Under the pieces are notes generated by a model. That model was not told the origin of the DNA, made no database searches, and worked only from the letters and a program-made list of their open reading frames with translations. Below are positions 54,169 through 63,823 of a DNA stretch of 64,000 nucleotides, piece after piece. Positions within the stretch are counted from its first letter, which is position 1, and the number at the start of each line of letters is the position of its first letter. Origin of the DNA: an uncultured Veillonellaceae bacterium (GTDB lineage Bacteria > Bacillota > Negativicutes > JARBTT01); assembly GCA_963805085.1 (NCBI GenBank), contig CAWDTA010000002.1, positions 1,664,001 to 1,728,000 on the forward strand, given 5' to 3'. Position numbers and translations under genes: made by a program.

Positions 54169-54313
54169 CATAGTTTAAGTATCATTTGCGTAATTTTACT
54201 AAATAGGATTGCAAGATAAGGAGCGGGAGTAATATTCTAAGCGCTCATCATTGACTTTCTCCATTATGTGAAATACAATTTACCTAACAAATGGTCGGCA
54301 AGGAGGATGATTT

Positions 54314-54919
54314 ATGAGTGGTAAAACTAGAGATAAAATAAAGAAAATTGCGCTTACTCTATTTGCTGACAGTGGTTATGATGCAACAAGTATGGAGAAA
54401 ATTGCGACTGGAGTGGGAATAAAAAAATCATCACTGTATGCATTTATTACTAGTAAAGAAGCGCTGTTTTGGGAAATTTATGAGGAACTTGAAGCCCAAT
54501 ACCATAATTACATGGAGCGGTTATTGACAGAGTCGGAAAGCATGTCGCCAACAGAGAGGCTTTATTATCTCTTTAAGCAATATCTAATTGGTACTCAGAA
54601 TGAGGAACCGGGAGCGAGAACTTTTTGGATTCGTGTAATGTTTTTTCCCCCGGTGATGCTAAAAGATAGAGTGTTAGCGAGGGCGTTAAAACATGAAATG
54701 CTGCTTGGTGAGAGATACACGACAATAATTAAGGATGCAATTGAGCAAGGGTTAATTCGGAAAGAACCGCCCAAAGAAATTTTGCTTTCATATTATAGTT
54801 TAAGGCAGGGACTCTATTCATTAATGAATGTATTCATGTATGATATGACCGAAGCGCAAAAACTTGATAAGATTGATAAAGTATGGCAGAATTATTGGCA
54901 AGGAATAAAAGAAAGATAA
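54314..54919 (+). CDS. TetR family regulator
   Basis: GYDATSMEKIATGVGIKKSSLYAFITSKE. Confidence 0.9.
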   Translation: MSGKTRDKIKKIALTLFADSGYDATSMEKIATGVGIKKSSLYAFITSKEALFWEIYEELEAQYHNYMERLLTESESMSPTERLYYLFKQYLIGTQNEEPGARTFWIRVMFFPPVMLKDRVLARALKHEMLLGERYTTIIKDAIEQGLIRKEPPKEILLSYYSLRQGLYSLMNVFMYDMTEAQKLDKIDKVWQNYWQGIKER

Positions 54920-55009: not shown

Positions 55010-56410
55010 CTAATAAACCACATCCGGCAAAGCGGATAAGGTATTGGAGGGCTGACTACTAGTTCCTTTTGGAAAACTAAAGAAAATAGTGGCTCCTTCG
55101 TCAACTTTTCCTATCATCCAGGCTTTACCACCGTGTCTTTTTAAAATCTTTTGACATGTAACAAGCCCTACGCCCGTTCCTTCAAATTGATCAACAGAAT
55201 GAAGTCTCTCTAAAATTTCGAAAAGTTTAGAAGAATACTCCATATCAAAACCTGCCCCATTGTCTTTTACGGAAATAATATAATTATTCCCATCCTCGGT
55301 GAAAGTTACATCAATAATTGCCTGTTCTCTGTTTCGGGTATATTTTAGCGCATTATCAAGAATATTTGTTACAAGAATTTTCAGCATGATCGGGTCGCCC
55401 TGGACTGTGGGCAGTTCTGCCACAGTATACTCTACCTGTCTTTTCGGCCCAATCTGACGTAACCCAGAATAGACTGTCCAAAATAATTCCTCCAACGAAA
55501 CCGGCTCGGTTTTTATTTGTTTTTGAGACATTCTGGAAAGTTCCAACAAATGATCCGTAATGGTAACGACTTCTGCAGATTTGTTTTGAATATGGTTAAC
55601 TAGCTCCTGCCCATTACGATCAAGCTTATCATAATAATCACGGACGATAAATTTAGCAAGCTGATTGATAGACAGTAATGGGGATTTGAAATCATGTGCT
55701 ACGGAATGACAGAAATGGTTTAGTTCCTGGTTATTATCTAATGCTTGTTGAAGTACAAAGTTAGTTTGTTGAAGTGACTCTTGATAATTAAGCAAGTCGG
55801 CTCTTGTCTTTTCGAAATATACCATTAACATACCAGACGTAATAACTAGTCGTGTAATGCCACATAGTAAGGTAATCCATAGCGGAAGTGACGTATCGTT
55901 TGCGAAAAAAGGAATGATAGCGGTTAAAATACCCCAGATAAAGAATGCATATCCGGTAATATAGTTTCCTGCTCCTCTTATCTTCAATTTACAAATAAAT
56001 ATTCTGGCTATATAAAGTAACATAATAGCGCCGAGCCATGTGGGAGGAAGCAACTTCCAAAATACGGATGCATTCATTAAATCAAATATGACACTTAACA
56101 ACGAAACAATAGTGGCACCGTATAACCAATATCTGTTTAGAGGTTTGTTGATTACAAGATAAGCACTGTATATTAGTACTGTAGCACAAACAATAAAAAA
56201 CATTTGGTAAGTTATACAACTTAAAAATGAACTTTTCCAATCAAACATACCAGACTCAAAAAGGGAAATTCGTGTAAAATGAGCTAGCCAGCTTATTATC
56301 CAAGCTCCCATATATTTTTCACGATGTACAATATATAGATGTATATAGATAAATAACATTAGAGCCGTTCCAGCCATTGCAATTATAGTAGATAAAAAAA
56401 CATAATCCAT
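55010..56410 (-). CDS. Multi-TM sensor histidine kinase, copy A (intact)
   Basis: About 7 TMs, then FCHSVAHDFKSPL, NALKY, DNGAGF, GTGVGL; ATG 56410 after GGAGG. Confidence 0.92.
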   Translation of the reverse strand: MDYVFLSTIIAMAGTALMLFIYIHLYIVHREKYMGAWIISWLAHFTRISLFESGMFDWKSSFLSCITYQMFFIVCATVLIYSAYLVINKPLNRYWLYGATIVSLLSVIFDLMNASVFWKLLPPTWLGAIMLLYIARIFICKLKIRGAGNYITGYAFFIWGILTAIIPFFANDTSLPLWITLLCGITRLVITSGMLMVYFEKTRADLLNYQESLQQTNFVLQQALDNNQELNHFCHSVAHDFKSPLLSINQLAKFIVRDYYDKLDRNGQELVNHIQNKSAEVVTITDHLLELSRMSQKQIKTEPVSLEELFWTVYSGLRQIGPKRQVEYTVAELPTVQGDPIMLKILVTNILDNALKYTRNREQAIIDVTFTEDGNNYIISVKDNGAGFDMEYSSKLFEILERLHSVDQFEGTGVGLVTCQKILKRHGGKAWMIGKVDEGATIFFSFPKGTSSQPSNTLSALPDVVY

Positions 56411-56488
56411 AGATTTTCCTCCATAATCATTAATATACAGCAATAAGTAATTTAATCTATAAATCGCCAAACCTCCTGTTGTTTTTAG

Positions 56489-56881
56489 TTATGACGGGAA
56501 CTTTCTATAAGTTGAGGACACCATCCCTTTTGTAGTAAGTCCAAAATTATAATTTCCATTTCTTTTGAAGAACTTTTGAAACCGCTCCATAAAATACGTT
56601 TCTACTATTTCAGAAGAAAAATCTGATATTTGTCCTATGTTAACTCTTACTGTACCAATAATCTTTGAACCAAATTTGGCATAGAATAGCGTGCCCCATT
56701 CGTCTAGTTCATCATACAAGAGCTTATTTTGATGGTCTACGGATACTAAGTTATAGCCTATTTCTTCGCCATAAACGTTATACCTTAGGCGATAGATTTC
56801 TTTTTTTTCTTCGGGTGTTGCTGCAATGCTAATTTTAATTACATTTGAGTCCGTAAGTGTCGTACAAGGTTCATTTTCCAT
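56489..56881 (-). pseudogene. Truncated LuxI/FeeM-like N-acyltransferase, copy A
   Basis: 130 aa homologous to the first third of the 380-aa copy B; it stops after YRKFPS and the rest is absent. Confidence 0.8.
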
Positions 56882-57192
56882 AAATTTTGCCTCCTATATT
56901 GTTTAGTAATCATTAGTGGATATTGCATTTACAAACAAAAAAGTATAATAAGCTATATTATAGCAAATTTTTACACATATGACATAAAAAATAGAAAATT
57001 ACACCATAAAATAGCTTTTTTAGTAAGTATCTATAAAAATAACGAATTTTATATGGTAAATTAATGCAGTAGTGGAATAAAACACTATAATTGCTTATTC
57101 GTATTCACAATTTCATTTGAATAATTTTTAAAGAACAAACTAGTATAGCCGTTGCCATGATCAAAAAATATGTTGAATTGGAGGGATATGAT

Positions 57193-58273
57193 TTGTATAA
57201 AGTGTTGCTTGTTGATGATGACAGGTCGATTTTATGCGGTCTAAGGCAATTCAAAGAATGGGAATCGTGTGGATTCACGATTGAAGATGAGGCATGTGCT
57301 AGCAAGGATGCATTAGAAAAAATAGCTTTAAAATGCTTTGATCTGGTAATTACCGATATCAGAATGCCTGGAATGGACGGACTAGAATTATTAAATAAGA
57401 TTAAAGCCAGAAGATACTTGTCTAATGATAATGAGCACCTATAATGATTTTGAATATGCGCAAGAAGGTATACGTCTTGGCGTATTTGACTATATTATGA
57501 AACCGATGGACAGCAAGATTCTGGAGAGTGCCTTAACTCGGGTAAAAAGGCATTTGGATGACAAAAACTTCTTACAAAAAAGGTGCAAAGAAGAAAAACA
57601 AATGCTATTCGAAGAAAACCTTAGATTTTTTTACCCAACGAGCCAAGAACAAAAACTTATTGATTTAATGATGATCGGTGACTATAAGACTATTGATGAA
57701 GCATCAAGTACTTGTTTAGAACTATTTAATTTGACGAATCAAGACCTAGTTAAGACAGATATACTGCTGGAAAAAATGCTCTTGAATTTAAGAGACAAAA
57801 TTAATCATAGTTTTCCCTGGCTGGCAACCCTTGAAGAAATAGTCTTTAATGATACTTTGACTGATGTGGAATCTATTGATGGTATTAAGACAAAGTTTTT
57901 GAGTTGTGTAAATACTATGCTGGAAATTATAAAAAGATATGAACTGCATCATCCAGACAGCGTAGTAGGGAAAACCTGTCGCTATGTAATAGAGCATGTC
58001 GAAGATAATATAAAACTGGAGGATATTGCTAGCGTTGTACATATAAGTCAGGATTATATGGGCAAGTTGTTTAAACAGAAAACGGGATATAATTTTATTG
58101 ATTATGCCACTAAAGTAAAAATGGGACATGCAAAACATCTGATTGTGACAGGTCAATATAAAAACTATGAACTAAGCGAAAAGCTTGGCTATAGTAGTAC
58201 GGATTACTTTTGTCGTCTATTTAAAGGTTACACTGGGGTTACACCAGTTGAATTTAGAAAAATGGGGAGTTAA
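57193..58273 (+). pseudogene. Frameshifted AraC-type response regulator, copy A
   Basis: 5-bp deletion at about 57411 (GCCAGAA-GATAC versus GCCAGAA-ACTTA-GATAC in copy B) splits the receiver domain. Confidence 0.88.
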
Positions 58274-58604: not shown

Positions 58605-58780
58605 AAGGCTGTTCCAAGTGTTCCACTTGTTCCACTAAAATCTATTTCACGAATATATTTTAAATAGAGCAATATCTAAGACTTATAAAAGCACTTTTAA
58701 CCACATCCATTTATTGGATGTGGTTAATTTGTGGTCAAAAAGGCCCCACGTCAAACCACGCGAAGCCGTGAATTTACTGA

Positions 58781-58835: not shown

Positions 58836-60206
58836 CTAATAAACCACATCCGGTAAAGCGGATAAGGTGTTAGAGGTCTGACTACTATTTCCTTTTGGAA
58901 AACTAAAGAAAATAGTGGCTCCTTCATCAACTTTTCCTGTCATCCAGGCTTTACCACCGTGTCTTTTTAGAATCTTTTGACACGTAACAAGCCCTACGCC
59001 CGTTCCTTCAAATTGATCGACAGGATGAAGTCTCTCTAAAATTTCGAAAAGTTTAGAAGAATACTCCATATCAAAACCTGCCCCATTGTCTTTTACGGAA
59101 ATAATATAATTATTCCCATCCTCGGTGAAAGTTACATCAATAATTGCCTGTTCTCTGTTTCGGGTATATTTTAGCGCATTATCAAGAATATTTGTTACAA
59201 GAATTTTCAGCATGATCGGGTCGCCCTGGACTGTGGGCAGTTCTGCCACAGTATACTCTACCTGTCTTTTCGGCCCAATCTGCCGTAACTCGGAATAGAC
59301 TGTCCAAAATAACTCCTCCAACGAAACCGGCTCGGTTTTTATTTGTTTTTGAGACATTCTGGAGAGTTCCAACAAATGATCCGTAATGGTAACGACTTCT
59401 GCAGATTTGTTTTGAATATGGTTAACTAACTCTTGTCCATTACGATCAAGCTTATCATAATAATCACGCACGATAAATTTAGCAAGCTGATTGATAGACA
59501 GTAATGGGGATTTGAAATCATGTGCTACGGAATGACAGAAATGGTTTAGTTCCTGGTTAGTTTGTTGAAGCGATTCTTGATTACTAAGCAAATTGGCTCT
59601 TGTTTTTTCGAAATATACTAACACAATACCGGACGCAATAATAAATCGCAAGATTCCAGCAATTGAGACTATCCATCGTGAGAAGTCGGTATTGACACCC
59701 AAAAGGGGTGTTAATGCGGTGAAAATGCCCCACAGGATAAATGCATATCCTGTAATATAGTTTCCTGCTCCTTTTATCTGCAATTTGGTAATAAATATTC
59801 TACCTATATAGTACAGCATAAGAGTGGAAATACATGAAGAAGGAACTAACTTCCAAAAAGTAGAAGCATCCACTAAATCGAGTATAATATTTAATACAGA
59901 AGCAATAGCGACACCACGCAACCAAATTACATTTAATTGCTTTTTAATGACAAGATGAGCACTATATATAAGAGTCGTGGAACAGGCTATAAAAAGCGTT
60001 TGGTAAGTAAAAAAACTTAATATGGACTGTCTCCAATCTAACATTCCAGAATCAAAGAGTGCAAGCCGTATTAAATGAATAAGCCATCCTACGATCCAAG
60101 CACCCATATATGATTCGCGATATACGCCATATAAATATATGTAGATAAATAGCATAAGAATTGTCCCGGACATTGCGCATATTATAGATAAAAAAATAAT
60201 ATCCAT
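58836..60206 (-). CDS. Multi-TM sensor histidine kinase, copy B (intact)
   Basis: Same kinase core as copy A with a diverged TM domain; ATG 60206 after GAAGGAAGG. Confidence 0.92.
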   Translation of the reverse strand: MDIIFLSIICAMSGTILMLFIYIYLYGVYRESYMGAWIVGWLIHLIRLALFDSGMLDWRQSILSFFTYQTLFIACSTTLIYSAHLVIKKQLNVIWLRGVAIASVLNIILDLVDASTFWKLVPSSCISTLMLYYIGRIFITKLQIKGAGNYITGYAFILWGIFTALTPLLGVNTDFSRWIVSIAGILRFIIASGIVLVYFEKTRANLLSNQESLQQTNQELNHFCHSVAHDFKSPLLSINQLAKFIVRDYYDKLDRNGQELVNHIQNKSAEVVTITDHLLELSRMSQKQIKTEPVSLEELFWTVYSELRQIGPKRQVEYTVAELPTVQGDPIMLKILVTNILDNALKYTRNREQAIIDVTFTEDGNNYIISVKDNGAGFDMEYSSKLFEILERLHPVDQFEGTGVGLVTCQKILKRHGGKAWMTGKVDEGATIFFSFPKGNSSQTSNTLSALPDVVY

Positions 60207-60226
60207 TTGTATCCTTCCTTCTATAC

Positions 60227-61369
60227 CTATGTGCAAGAAGCACCGATAAAATTTATATTTTTCACAATCTTACTGGCGATATCGGGATATAAATGGTTAA
60301 ACTTCAAGAAAAAATGATAAGACAATACTAATATTTCTGTATCAGTTGCAGCTACGATACTTAATGTATGCCTAGTACGGTTAATTAAACCATTTCCATT
60401 GAGGTGTTGTCCTAAAGGTATTTTATCAATATCCAACGAGTCCGGAGAATGCAGTGTTCCTGAAAGTAAGACAATAATCTCTTGACTTACACTTTCGCGA
60501 GCCACAACGTAGTCGCCTTTAGAACATTGAACAATCACGCCACAACGATATAAGAATTTCTTCGCATCTGCTTCAGATAATCCTTGCAGTATTGGAATAC
60601 ATTTATTAGGAGCGTATCCTAGACGAGTACGTAGAATCTCCCAAAAAATTTCTTCAGTTACGAGTTGGCTGTTTGTAATAGTTGCGGCTCCAGGAAACCT
60701 AGAACGAAACCATTCAATGAATCGGTTGTTCTGTGTTTTTCCTTTATCAAGGGCTATCTTTAAAAAAGGAGAGTGTACCCTTCGCAAATGATCAATATCG
60801 TTTGGCATTACAACAAAATTAGCCAATGCCCCATAACTGGGATCTACGACATTTGTACCTATACGGCGATGTCCATAGTGTTCATGGAGAGGAAGCAAGT
60901 AAAAATTGGTACTTCCAAACCCAAAATCTACTTGATTATCGCAATACATCTCAAATACCTTGGTCATCAGTGTGGTGAATAATGGAAAGTTTCGATAGGA
61001 TGAAGCCACCATACCTTTTGAAGCAATCCCAAAGCTATAATTTTCATCTTTGTGGTAATATTCTTTAAATTTATCCATAGAATACATCTTTACTATTTCA
61101 GAAGGAAAGGATGATAGTTGTCCTATATTAACTCTTACAGTGCCAACAACCTCTGATCCTATTTTCGCGTAAAATAAAGTACCCCATTCATCTAATTCAT
61201 CATATAAAAGTTTGTTTTTATGATCTGCACCTACGAGATCATAGCCTATTTCTTCGGCATAGATAGTATACCGAAGACGATAGATTTCTTTTTTTTCTTC
61301 GGGCGTTGTTGCAATGCTAATTTTAATTACATCTGAGTCCGTAAGTGGCGTACAAGGTTCATTTTCCAT
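60227..61369 (-). CDS. GNAT-fold N-acyltransferase (LuxI/FeeM N-acyl amino acid synthase-like) with a C-terminal cNMP-binding-like domain
   Basis: ATTPEEKKEIYRLRYTIYAEEIG...DELDE...VVGTVR matches the LuxI/FeeM N-terminal pattern. The C-terminal PILQGLS...KGDYVV...LLSGTL...SIVAATDTEILVL...YPDIASKI is Crp-like. Confidence 0.78.
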   Translation of the reverse strand: MENEPCTPLTDSDVIKISIATTPEEKKEIYRLRYTIYAEEIGYDLVGADHKNKLLYDELDEWGTLFYAKIGSEVVGTVRVNIGQLSSFPSEIVKMYSMDKFKEYYHKDENYSFGIASKGMVASSYRNFPLFTTLMTKVFEMYCDNQVDFGFGSTNFYLLPLHEHYGHRRIGTNVVDPSYGALANFVVMPNDIDHLRRVHSPFLKIALDKGKTQNNRFIEWFRSRFPGAATITNSQLVTEEIFWEILRTRLGYAPNKCIPILQGLSEADAKKFLYRCGVIVQCSKGDYVVARESVSQEIIVLLSGTLHSPDSLDIDKIPLGQHLNGNGLINRTRHTLSIVAATDTEILVLSYHFFLKFNHLYPDIASKIVKNINFIGASCT

Positions 61370-61680
61370 AAATTTTGCCTCCTATATTGTTTAGTAATCA
61401 TTAGTGGATATTGCATTTACAAACAAAAAAGTATAATAAGATATATTATAGCAAATTTTTACACATATGACATAAAAAATAGAAAATTACACCATAAAAT
61501 AGCTTTTTTAGTAAGTATCTATAGAAATAACGAATTTTATATGGTAAATTAATGTAGTAATGGAATAAAAAACTATAATTGATTATTCGTATTCACAATT
61601 TCATTTAAATAATTTTTAAAGAACAAACTAGTATAGCCGTTGCCATGATCAAAAAATATGTTGAATTGGAGGGATATGAT

Positions 61681-62766
61681 TTGTATAAAGTGTTGCTTGT
61701 TGATGATGACAGGTCGATTTTATGTGGGCTAAGGCAATTTAAAGAATGGAAATCATGTGGATTCACTATTGAAGATGAGGCATGTGCTAGCAAGGAGGCA
61801 TTGGACAAACTGGTTGAAAAATGTTTTGATCTGGTAATTACCGATATCAGAATGCCTGGAATGGACGGACTAGAATTATTAAATAAGATTAAAGCCAGAA
61901 ACTTAGATACTTGTCTAATGATAATGAGCACCTATAATGATTTTGAATATGCGCAAGAAGGTATACGTCTTGGCGTATTTGACTATATTATGAAACCGAT
62001 GGACAGCAAGATTCTGGAGAGTGCCTTAACTCGGGTAAAAAGGCATTTGGATGACAAAAACTTCTTACAAAAAAGGTGCAAAGAAGAAAAACAAATGCTA
62101 TTCGAAGAAAACCTTAGATTTTTTTACCCAACGAGCCAAGAACAAAAACTTATTGATTTAATGATGATCGGTGACTATAAGACTATTGATGAAGCATCAA
62201 GTACTTGTTTAGAACTATTTAATTTGACGAATCAAGACCTAGTTAAGACAGATATACTGCTGGAAAAAATGCTCTTGAATTTAAGAGACAAAATTAATCA
62301 TAGTTTTCCCTGGCTGGCAACCCTTGAAGAAATAGTCTTTAATGATACTTTGACTGATGTGGAATCTATTGATGGTATTAAGACAAAGTTTTTGAGTTGT
62401 ATAAATACTATGCTGGAAATTATAAAAAGATATGAACTGCATCATCCAGACAGCGTAGTAGGGAAAACCTGTCGCTATGTAATAGAGCATGTCGAAGATA
62501 ATATAAAACTGGAGGATATTGCTAGCGTTGTACATATAAGCCAGGATTATATGGGCAAGTTGTTTAAACAGAAAACGGGATATAATTTTATTGATTATGC
62601 CACTAAAGTAAAAATGGAACATGCAAAACATCTGATTGTGACAGGTCAATATAAAAACTATGAATTAAGTGAAAAGCTTGGCTATAGTAGTACGGATTAC
62701 TTTTGTCGTCTATTTAAAGGTTACACTGGGGTTACACCAGTTGAATTTAGAAAAATGGGGAGTTAA
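61681..62766 (+). CDS. Response regulator, receiver plus AraC HTH (YesN-like), copy B (intact)
   Basis: VLLVDDD, TDIRMPGMDG, DYIMKP; AraC motifs SQDYMGKLFKQKTG and YFCRLFK..TG.TP.EFR; TTG start after GGAGG. Confidence 0.92.
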   Translation: MYKVLLVDDDRSILCGLRQFKEWKSCGFTIEDEACASKEALDKLVEKCFDLVITDIRMPGMDGLELLNKIKARNLDTCLMIMSTYNDFEYAQEGIRLGVFDYIMKPMDSKILESALTRVKRHLDDKNFLQKRCKEEKQMLFEENLRFFYPTSQEQKLIDLMMIGDYKTIDEASSTCLELFNLTNQDLVKTDILLEKMLLNLRDKINHSFPWLATLEEIVFNDTLTDVESIDGIKTKFLSCINTMLEIIKRYELHHPDSVVGKTCRYVIEHVEDNIKLEDIASVVHISQDYMGKLFKQKTGYNFIDYATKVKMEHAKHLIVTGQYKNYELSEKLGYSSTDYFCRLFKGYTGVTPVEFRKMGS

Positions 62767-62941
62767 TTATTTTTTATAGTTTAAACTGTAATTTAGTGAT
62801 TCCAGAGGGACAAAAAATAAAATGCTTTTTATATTGCACGATCGATGTTTCTGTTGACTTTTTCCACAATGCAGGGTAATATTTACCTAACAACCGGTCG
62901 TTAAATATATAAGTATTTTAACTAAATGGCAGGAGGCAACT

Positions 62942-63823
62942 ATGAATAAACGAATTGAAACCAAAGTATCCATTACTGCACTAGGAACTTGTCTTATGCG
63001 AGCTACCTCTTATTATGAAAATAATCCATACTATAAAAGTGAGGATTTTATTGCCTCTATGATTATACCAGCGTATCTTCGTACAATGACAAAATATACT
63101 ATTTCGCGAAGTATTCTAAAGAAAGCTTTATTTAAAGTTCCAGGAATATATGAGTATATCATTTCACGGACTAAATTTATTGACGAAATAGTCAACAGTC
63201 TTGCTGCGAATATTGATCAAGTATTGATCTTTGGCGCTGGATTCGATTCCCGAGCTATTCGGTTTAGAAATCAGTTAAAGAACGCGAAAGTATTTGAGCT
63301 TGACGCTCCAGTAACTCAGCAGGCAAAAATTAATAGATTTACGAAAAAAAATATTAATTTTCCACCGAATTTAAAGTTCATTTCCATTGACTTTAATAAA
63401 GAAGCATTAGTAGAAAAATTAGATGAAGCCGGGTTTGAAAAAAATCGCAGATGTCTTTTCCTTTTAGAAGGGTTAACCTATTATCTTAATCAAGAAGCTA
63501 TTGATAGTACATTAAATCTTATAAGTGAGTATTCTGCGAAAGACAGTCTAATTGTTTTTGATTATGCGTCCGCCTCAGCAGTTCGGCAAGAGAAAATTCA
63601 TGGTGACACTAATATAGAAAAGCATTACAAAAAACTTGTCAAATCGGGTGAAAAGCCTAGTTATATGATTGAGGGGTCAATAGAAAAATTTTTAGAAAAA
63701 TATAAATTTGGATTAATTAAGGAAGTGGATTCGGCTCATTTAGCAGAAAAATATTTTAATAAAGAAGATTTTGAGCGAATCACCCAGAAGTTTAGGATTG
63801 TCCAGGCGATAAAGAATGTCTAA
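62942..63823 (+). CDS. Class I SAM-dependent methyltransferase (leucine carboxyl methyltransferase/YktD-like)
   Basis: SRTKFID, QVLIFGAGFDSRA, FELD, LLEGLTYYL. Confidence 0.88.
   Translation: MNKRIETKVSITALGTCLMRATSYYENNPYYKSEDFIASMIIPAYLRTMTKYTISRSILKKALFKVPGIYEYIISRTKFIDEIVNSLAANIDQVLIFGAGFDSRAIRFRNQLKNAKVFELDAPVTQQAKINRFTKKNINFPPNLKFISIDFNKEALVEKLDEAGFEKNRRCLFLLEGLTYYLNQEAIDSTLNLISEYSAKDSLIVFDYASASAVRQEKIHGDTNIEKHYKKLVKSGEKPSYMIEGSIEKFLEKYKFGLIKEVDSAHLAEKYFNKEDFERITQKFRIVQAIKNV

Follow-up and report, generated by a model that had tools for sequence, protein, structure and literature searches.

A conserved pairing of a FeeM-like synthase gene with a seven-helix histidine kinase gene in Negativicutes, a candidate lipid-amide signaling circuit

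The locus described here lies in a 64,000-nucleotide stretch of DNA from an uncultured Veillonellaceae bacterium (contig CAWDTA010000002.1; the whole stretch is called the window). It comprises a gene for a predicted N-acyl amide synthase, a gene for a histidine kinase whose input domain has seven predicted transmembrane (7TM) helices, and a divergently transcribed gene for an AraC-type response regulator. With moderate confidence, we read the synthase and kinase as the producer and receptor of a lipid-amide signal, wired in this locus to the AraC-type regulator. This reading is preferred because the synthase has a FeeM fold, its pairing with the kinase is conserved, the sensor domain of the kinase follows the synthase, and the divergence between gene copies is mosaic. 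This analysis shows how the locus is built, which folds its proteins are predicted to adopt, that the pairing is conserved and that the divergence is mosaic; we infer the product, its diffusion and binding, the phosphotransfer and the autoregulation.

The synthase and the multi-helix kinase, proposed as linked in an initial annotation made from the sequence without database searches, are indeed a conserved, co-inherited pair. The genome that contains the window has four full-length synthase paralogs (the window gene and those of loci L006, L007 and L008) and one remnant. All four full-length paralogs adjoin kinase genes, and the seven kinases so placed share a 7TM domain of approximately 215 amino acids. 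This domain is present in eight copies in the genome, seven beside a synthase gene and one alone. The lone copy is part of a kinase with a PAS domain (L089:7870-9549, corresponding to G000:C2:965870-967549), whose neighbors are a methyltransferase and another PAS kinase.

The pairing extends well beyond this genome. A scan of species-representative genomes, seeded with 16 closer synthase sequences, yielded 80 loci, which were searched with profiles built in this analysis. Of these, 36 (L009-L044) form a Negativicutes-type group, defined by their titles (Negativicutes, Sporomusaceae, Bacillota and one Clostridiaceae) and by identity rank, and a 7TM kinase adjoins the synthase in 35 of them. The exception, L035, is a 2.8-kb contig that is cut just upstream of the synthase. 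In the same profile search, the 7TM domain was found in none of the 44 loci from other phyla (L045-L088). We also sampled 301 genomes of the class, of which 67 have the sensor and 63 the synthase: both occur in 62 genomes, the sensor only in 5, the synthase only in 1, and neither in 233. Because these genomes are related to each other, the numbers are counts and not statistics. Neither gene was found in the three largest families sampled (0/66, 0/62 and 0/45 genomes). Among the synthase places listed, 121 of 125 are within 2.5 kb of a sensor, the remaining four being fragmentary or situated at the end of a contig. Conversely, a synthase lies no more than 2.5 kb from 126 of the 150 sensor places listed, out of at least 157 sensor matches in the sample. 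A quick tree of 75 synthases puts 39 Negativicutes-type proteins on one side of a branch with a Shimodaira-Hasegawa-like approximate likelihood ratio (SH-aLRT) support of 99, and the four paralogs of the window's genome fall in four different subclades.

Synthases and sensors also diverge in parallel. Their distance matrices are correlated over 39 pairs (r=0.89), and the maximum among 1000 shuffles of partners was 0.23. This correlation is mostly due to inheritance as a unit. More specific are cases in which the cytoplasmic kinase core differs in history from the rest. The pair nearest to that of the window, L009, is 62% identical in the synthase and 59% in the sensor, and its kinase core is only 19% identical and of an unrelated type. 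The opposite is seen in L007 and L011, where the kinase core is 68-70% identical to that of the window, the synthase 45-48% and the sensor 39-47%. Similarly, the tandem kinases of L007 have sensors that are 43% identical and cytoplasmic parts that are 95% identical. These comparisons indicate that the sensor domain stays with the synthase when the kinase core is exchanged. The synthase and sensor would then represent a specificity cassette, and the kinase core and regulator an exchangeable output.

The window itself contains an example of such mosaic divergence. In addition to the genes introduced above (copy B), a tandem copy A spans positions 55010-58273 and comprises a kinase, a synthase remnant and a regulator. 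The copies differ greatly in similarity from segment to segment. At the protein level, the cytoplasmic parts of the two kinases are 97% identical and the 7TM sensors 59%, and the synthase remnant is 71% identical to its counterpart, the remainder having been removed by a deletion of approximately 665 bp. At the nucleotide level, identity is 93-100% in the kinase core, 56-81% in the sensor, 71-81% in what remains of the synthase, and mostly 94-100% in the control region and regulator. The rate of synonymous substitution (dS) is 0.93 in the sensor and 0.79 in the synthase, compared with 0.105 in the kinase core and 0.02-0.17 in the regulator, and the ratio of nonsynonymous to synonymous rates (dN/dS) is 0.09-0.29 in all segments. 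The differing dS values and low dN/dS values therefore imply that the segments have different histories and have been under purifying selection, rather than arising in one recent duplication. On the evidence of these sequences, the histories differ through recombination or gene conversion. The three genes had been annotated as duplicated in one unit; the duplication is real, and copy A is a decaying mosaic rather than a plain second unit. Second cassettes are prone to decay: in copy A, the regulator is frameshifted and the synthase shortened while the kinase reading frame stays open, and one regulator in genome G060 has an in-frame stop codon.

An alternative is that the module serves cell-autonomous control of membrane lipids. 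In this case, an OlsB-like enzyme would make a membrane lipid that contains an amino acid, or the lyso form of such a lipid. The 7TM kinase would monitor the level of this lipid or the state of the bilayer and adjust gene expression, with no exchange between cells. The synthase does match the Pfam family Acetyltransf_5 above the cut-off (26.0 bits versus 22.4), and this family also includes aminolipid N-acyltransferases. A 7TM bundle with no outer domain would be suited to sensing within the bilayer, and conserved pairing fits any product-sensing loop. However, the synthase scores only 18.9 bits, over 48 residues, against the OlsB NCBIfam equivalog, whose cut-off is 350, and no second acyltransferase was seen among the window neighbors scanned. 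A housekeeping lipid would also not be expected to involve four diverged pairs per genome, mosaic cassettes, orphan sensors and decaying copies, and the search of the 301 genomes found no trace of the module in any of the three largest families. We consider this alternative unlikely, and prefer a signal passed from the synthase to the sensor.

The predicted synthase is FeeM- and LuxI-like in its modeled fold, but distant from these proteins in sequence, because profiles of its N-terminal domain match weakly while the structures match. A structure model (AlphaFold2, AF2; pLDDT 94.6, pTM 0.91) was made, as was the family profile, from an alignment of 46 homologs. FeeM chains (2g0b) occupy ranks 1-4 among PDB matches to this model (E 1e-8, target TM 0.74-0.77 over approximately 190-200 columns), and LasI (1ro5) is at rank 18 (TM 0.60). 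Identity to FeeM and to the structures of N-acyl homoserine lactone (AHL) synthases is 13-15%. The C-terminal half of the model matches the cyclic-nucleotide-binding (CNB) domains of CNG and SthK channels, and a PDB search with the family profile gave CNB domains as hits at E 1e-50. The initial annotation had described an acetyltransferase of the GNAT family with a LuxI/FeeM signature and a Crp-like C-terminal domain, and profile and structure searches of 60227-61369 recovered this architecture with FeeM as the best PDB match. Residues R33, Y34, E40, D57, D60 and R79 vary little or not at all across the 46 homologs.

Among curated profiles, paralog L006 scores 30.1 bits against the FeeM family (PF21926; cut-off 27), and this family is assigned to many synthase homologs in precomputed annotation. 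The window synthase scores 21.5 bits against cNMP_binding, below the cut-off of 27.5, and has no match at E<=0.1 to Autoind_synth, the LuxI-family profile in Pfam. The best NCBIfam match of its N-terminal 113 residues is TIGR03694 (E 6e-8, 32.3 bits), which is below the cut-off of 111.95. A word-indexed search retrieved 108 full-length homologs, nearly all from Negativicutes where named. Fusions of this synthase type with a CNB domain make up a large family: an exhaustive search found 1471 representatives at E<=0.001, including 93 at E<=1e-30, and most of the best 150 matches are aligned over almost the full length.

The CNB domain appears to have lost its original ligand contacts. The annotated absence of the usual GE motif from the nucleotide pocket is correct: the window synthase reads LNGNGL...TRHTLS where its relatives have FGE.A...PR[ST]A, so that the canonical cassette (Gly-Glu ... 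Arg-Ser/Thr-Ala) is not present. The Arg of the phosphate cassette is found in 0 of 39 Negativicutes-type synthases (32 have His) versus 34 of 36 relatives from other phyla, and the Glu is kept in 6 of 39 versus 30 of 36. In 38 loci of other phyla, for which 81 of the 146 listed flanking open reading frames (ORFs) were scanned, proteins with adenylate/guanylate cyclase domains adjoin the synthase in six (L048, L051, L067, L072, L075 and L076). These neighbors include large kinase-AAA-TPR-cyclase proteins and a smaller cyclase. In three loci of other phyla (L048, L049 and L058), the synthase adjoins fusions of cytochrome P450 and CNB domains. NasP, from soil DNA, is a cAMP-activated N-acyl amino acid synthase (Clardy & Brady 2007, as cited in a passage of PMC4897644), and the cyclase neighbors and retained Arg in other phyla fit its reported activation. 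The window synthase has the architecture of NasP, in which a FeeM-type acyl-amide synthase is joined to a CNB domain. It differs from NasP as described in that the Negativicutes-type clade lacks the Arg that contacts the cyclic phosphate in all 39 proteins. Also, unlike the NasP-like relatives in other phyla, Negativicutes-type synthases are tied to a 7TM kinase and not to cyclases. The CNB-fold domain probably descended from a cAMP-type switch and, without the contacts to the cyclic phosphate, has another ligand or none. A cAMP-switched enzyme family is in this clade rewired to a two-component system.

The reverse direction of control is also conceivable, with the enzyme as the output. The synthase would then be under the direct control of the kinase or of the kinase's membrane domain, exerted through the altered CNB fold in place of cyclic-nucleotide control, and its lipid product would have another target, perhaps serving as an antibiotic or surfactant. 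In agreement with this idea, loss of the Arg coincides with gain of the kinase neighbor, relatives in other phyla keep the Arg in 34 of 36 cases and adjoin cyclase-domain proteins in 6 of 38 loci, and most paired kinases have no regulator gene nearby. However, the synthase contains neither a receiver domain nor another known phospho-acceptor domain. Moreover, the membrane sensor follows the synthase when cores are exchanged, a pattern that a shared ligand accounts for more readily than a docking surface does, and in the window the kinase has a cognate regulator as well as a conserved control element. We regard kinase control of the enzyme as rather improbable, and prefer a signal that runs from synthase to kinase.

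The sensor domain looks like a seven-helix membrane domain that matches no Pfam family and seems to be previously undescribed. The first 215 amino acids of the kinase have no Pfam match at E<=10. A model built from 42 sequences (pLDDT 87.3, pTM 0.83) has seven helices, predicted at residues 3-29, 32-52, 62-86, 93-111, 116-141, 148-170 and 173-214, and loops of at most 10 residues, in keeping with the annotated input of about seven helices and no large external domain. W41, R187 and E200 are invariant in the 42 sequences. A Foldseek search of the model against the PDB found nothing at E<=0.001. A wide VIA-align search gives bundles like those of G-protein-coupled receptors (GPCRs) and rhodopsins at Z 9-13; these values may reflect only a common helical arrangement, and no relationship is claimed. 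In a search of a protein atlas that is based on a language model, the nearest clusters are unnamed, and 7TMR-DISM, MASE3 and HisKA_7TM are weak leads at 0.84-0.85. Two proteins encoded just upstream of paralog clusters, a multi-helix membrane protein with a GGDEF domain (L008:3089-4186) and a PAS-GGDEF-EAL protein (L007:2259-4289), were inspected as translations rather than with the sensor profile, and no motif conserved in the sensor was seen in either.

Paired kinases of the window's genome are of two types. The first has a PAS domain and a HisKA domain of the 'HEIRNP' type and is approximately 556-575 amino acids long; the second has no PAS domain and a HisKA domain of the 'HDFKxPL' type and is approximately 446-466 amino acids long. 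The cores of the PAS-type kinases score best against the AtoS, KinD and ZraS models, all below the cut-offs. Prediction of a complex of the kinase and synthase gave a score of 0.00 in a run that had no controls, and counts for neither side.

The genes and coordinates in the initial annotation agree with the ORF listing and profile scans (Table 1), including the divergent AraC-type regulator, which matches Response_reg and HTH_18/HTH_AraC in Pfam. The annotated 20-nucleotide spacer between synthase and kinase genes also holds, given the start codon assigned here. The kinase ATG at 60206 is 20 nucleotides after the TAG of the synthase and is preceded by a strong AAGGAAGGA ribosome-binding site. 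It was chosen because of this site and because all homologs begin with MDY. In L090, the synthase and kinase ORFs overlap. The host had been placed in a Firmicute lineage; homolog names and locus titles correct this to the Negativicutes lineage. Negativicutes are Firmicutes with a double membrane.

Table 1. Positions of genes, domains and putative control signals in the window
Feature	Position	Strand	Remarks
Synthase gene	60227..61369	-	380 aa; FeeM/LuxI-fold GNAT at ~aa 14-190, helical linker, CNB-fold at ~aa 250-375, degenerate phosphate-binding cassette
Kinase ORF	58836-60236	-	Start assigned to ATG 60206, giving gene 58836-60206
7TM sensor domain of kinase	59562..60206	-	Predicted; aa 1-215
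Kinase core, same gene	58836..59561	-	HisKA and HATPase_c, without PAS
Divergent control region	61370..61644		Between synthase and regulator
Promoter-like site for synthase-kinase operon	-35 at 61473, -10 ending 61445	-	
Conserved element	61504..61526	-	TTCTATAGATACTTACTAAAAAA; candidate regulator binding site
Response regulator	61645..62766	+	REC and AraC-type helix-turn-helix
Terminator-like hairpin	58742..58767	-	69 nt past kinase stop codon
Copy A kinase	55010..56410	-	ORF intact
Copy A synthase remnant	56489..56881	-	130 aa
Copy A regulator	57157..58273	+	Two frames; 5-nt deletion near 57410

The regulator is found with a minority of the pairs. Among the loci first compared, L007 and L011 are the only ones in which a close homolog (57-75% identical) adjoins the pair. 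A targeted search recovered the layout of the window, with the regulator divergent from a synthase-kinase gene pair, in G004 and at two places in G060; one of the G060 regulators (L092:5782-6864) carries an in-frame TAA. Lucifera butyrica (L011) has a variant gene order, which recurs at G184:C90, possibly the same genome, and a kinase-regulator pair with no synthase is present at G184:C1. In total, the three-gene layout is found in six intact or partly decayed loci (two in the window's genome, one in G004, two in G060, and L011). The survey of synteny, suggested in the initial annotation as a check on its proposed system of synthase, receptor and output, supports a conserved pairing of synthase and sensor kinase, whereas the AraC-type regulator is confined to a minority subtype.

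Within this subtype, a 22-23-nucleotide element, TTCTATAGAT.nT..CTAAAAAG, is common to four of seven control regions (window, L007, L011 and L093) and is partly present in L092. It occurs once in the window, where 0 occurrences are expected. The whole 4.2-Mb genome has two occurrences, both of them within these control regions, and a single match to the reversed pattern, which served as a control. The element is 30 nucleotides upstream of the promoter-like -35 sequence of the synthase-kinase operon.

These observations are consistent with the following mechanism. A cytoplasmic FeeM-like enzyme would join a fatty acyl group, from acyl carrier protein (acyl-ACP) or coenzyme A (acyl-CoA), to an amine, most likely an amino acid, to yield an N-acyl amide. 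This lipid might partition into membranes or cross them, and the cognate histidine kinase could bind it within its bundle of seven helices. Judging from predicted helix positions, R187 (helix 7, residues 173-214) and W41 (helix 2, residues 32-52) are candidate contacts to an acidic head group. In the window, the kinase would phosphorylate the divergently encoded REC-AraC regulator, which would act at the conserved element of the shared control region and so feed back on the synthase-kinase operon.

Several observations weigh against such a circuit. The window synthase scores 22.9 bits against the FeeM profile, below the gathering cut-off of 27, and its N-terminal domain profile gives weak matches (generic GNATs at E 0.001, BjaI at E 0.01 and TofI at E 0.74). 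Co-inheritance of synthase and kinase proves a functional link but not its direction, and 24 of the 150 sensor copies listed have no synthase within 2.5 kb. Over the 34 PAS-type pairs, the synthase correlates as well with the kinase core as with the sensor (r=0.90 for both). Most pairs consist of a synthase and an orphan PAS-type kinase, with the regulator not nearby, and the control element is a candidate regulator site derived from few sequences in AT-rich DNA. The altered CNB domain has a role that the proposed pair leaves without explanation.

The circuit had been annotated as undescribed, and a full-text literature search, which covered material other than subscription papers and bioRxiv supplements, yielded no description of the module. 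A search for its terms in a paper on LuxI homologs in Gram-positive bacteria likewise revealed no description. Known systems resemble it in part. The synthase shares with FeeM (2g0b), LasI (1ro5) and BjaI (5w8a) its modeled fold and an N-terminal charged motif, and has a weak profile match to BjaI, but the low identity, the additional CNB domain and the lack of an Autoind_synth match set it apart from FeeM/LuxI-type enzymes. The TIGR03694 acyltransferases of PEP-CTERM/exosortase systems, the family of the best NCBIfam match, have been linked to N-acyl amino acid synthases (Craig et al. 2011, as cited in a passage of PMC4897644), although the score of the window synthase is far below the cut-off of that family.

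In the LuxM/LuxN, AinS/AinR and CqsA/CqsS systems of vibrios, the gene for a lipid-signal synthase adjoins the gene for a polytopic receptor kinase that lacks a large outer domain. The window synthase is unrelated to the LuxM, AinS and CqsA families, its partner sensor has no Pfam match, and the output is a REC-AraC regulator rather than the LuxU/LuxO relay. A hallmark of the specificity groups of agr in staphylococci and comQXP in Bacillus is a divergent segment for producer and sensor, on either side of which the kinase core and regulator are conserved. These systems occur in several specificity types, and their signals are peptides that are encoded by a precursor gene and then modified. The two copies in the window are similar in that a divergent synthase and sensor lie between a conserved kinase core and regulator, as are the tandem and orphan sensors. 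However, no peptide gene is evident in the window, and the producer is a predicted acyl-amide synthase.

Cell-to-cell signaling in Firmicutes is generally regarded as peptide-based, and acyl-amide signaling as a proteobacterial trait. If the proposed circuit is real, it would constitute an unreported form of lipid-based cell-to-cell signaling across one bacterial class. The hosts of the module include acetogens and metal-reducing or fermenting bacteria of soil and groundwater, such as Sporomusa and Pelosinus. Density-dependent control in such bacteria would matter for bioelectrochemical and remediation uses. The module supplies a defined candidate receptor for lipids of the N-acyl amino acid type, a sensor domain with no Pfam match, and a series of naturally diverged pairs of synthase and sensor in which ligand specificity can be studied. 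A passage in PMC4897644 describes the role of bacterial N-acyl amino acids for their producers as still unclear.

A broader scenario is conceivable, although we hold it only tentatively. Sporomusaceae and their relatives might use diffusible N-acyl amide autoinducers, with several private 'dialects' per genome that are specified by exchangeable cassettes, each combining a synthase derived from NasP with a 7TM sensor that is shaped like a GPCR and belongs to an as yet undescribed family. Orphan and tandem sensors might then detect foreign signals, and the CNB fold might gate synthesis by another ligand. The further idea that orphan PAS-type kinases pass the signal to the sporulation phosphorelay is very unlikely on present evidence.

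Genes that flank the two cassettes bear on the purpose of the product. MATE efflux and TetR genes adjoin copy A, and a gene for a methyltransferase of the LCM/TIGR00027 family that is dependent on S-adenosylmethionine (SAM) directly follows the regulator (62942-63823, + strand). The methyltransferase, TetR and MATE proteins were considered as partners for tailoring or export and were rejected, because tblastn matches were found in none of the other compared loci. In a variant of the signaling circuit, the N-acyl amide would be mainly antimicrobial, and the kinase would sense it to induce production and self-protection. Lantibiotic systems provide a precedent for self-induced production and protection, the long-chain N-acyl amino acids of FeeM/NasP-type enzymes were found as antibiotics, and the efflux and TetR genes could be read in the same way. 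Because tblastn found neither these genes nor the methyltransferase gene in the other compared loci, and because no immunity gene conserved with the pair was seen among the 80 loci, there is only a slim chance that this is the purpose, and a role of the amide as a signal is preferred.

A 47-nucleotide promoter- or operator-like repeat, which starts with TTGACTTT, is present at 54251-54297 and 62854-62900 with 74% identity between its copies. One copy precedes the TetR gene (54314-54919) and the other precedes the SAM-dependent methyltransferase gene, so that both cassettes lie between the two copies. The repeat may be a shared TetR operator.

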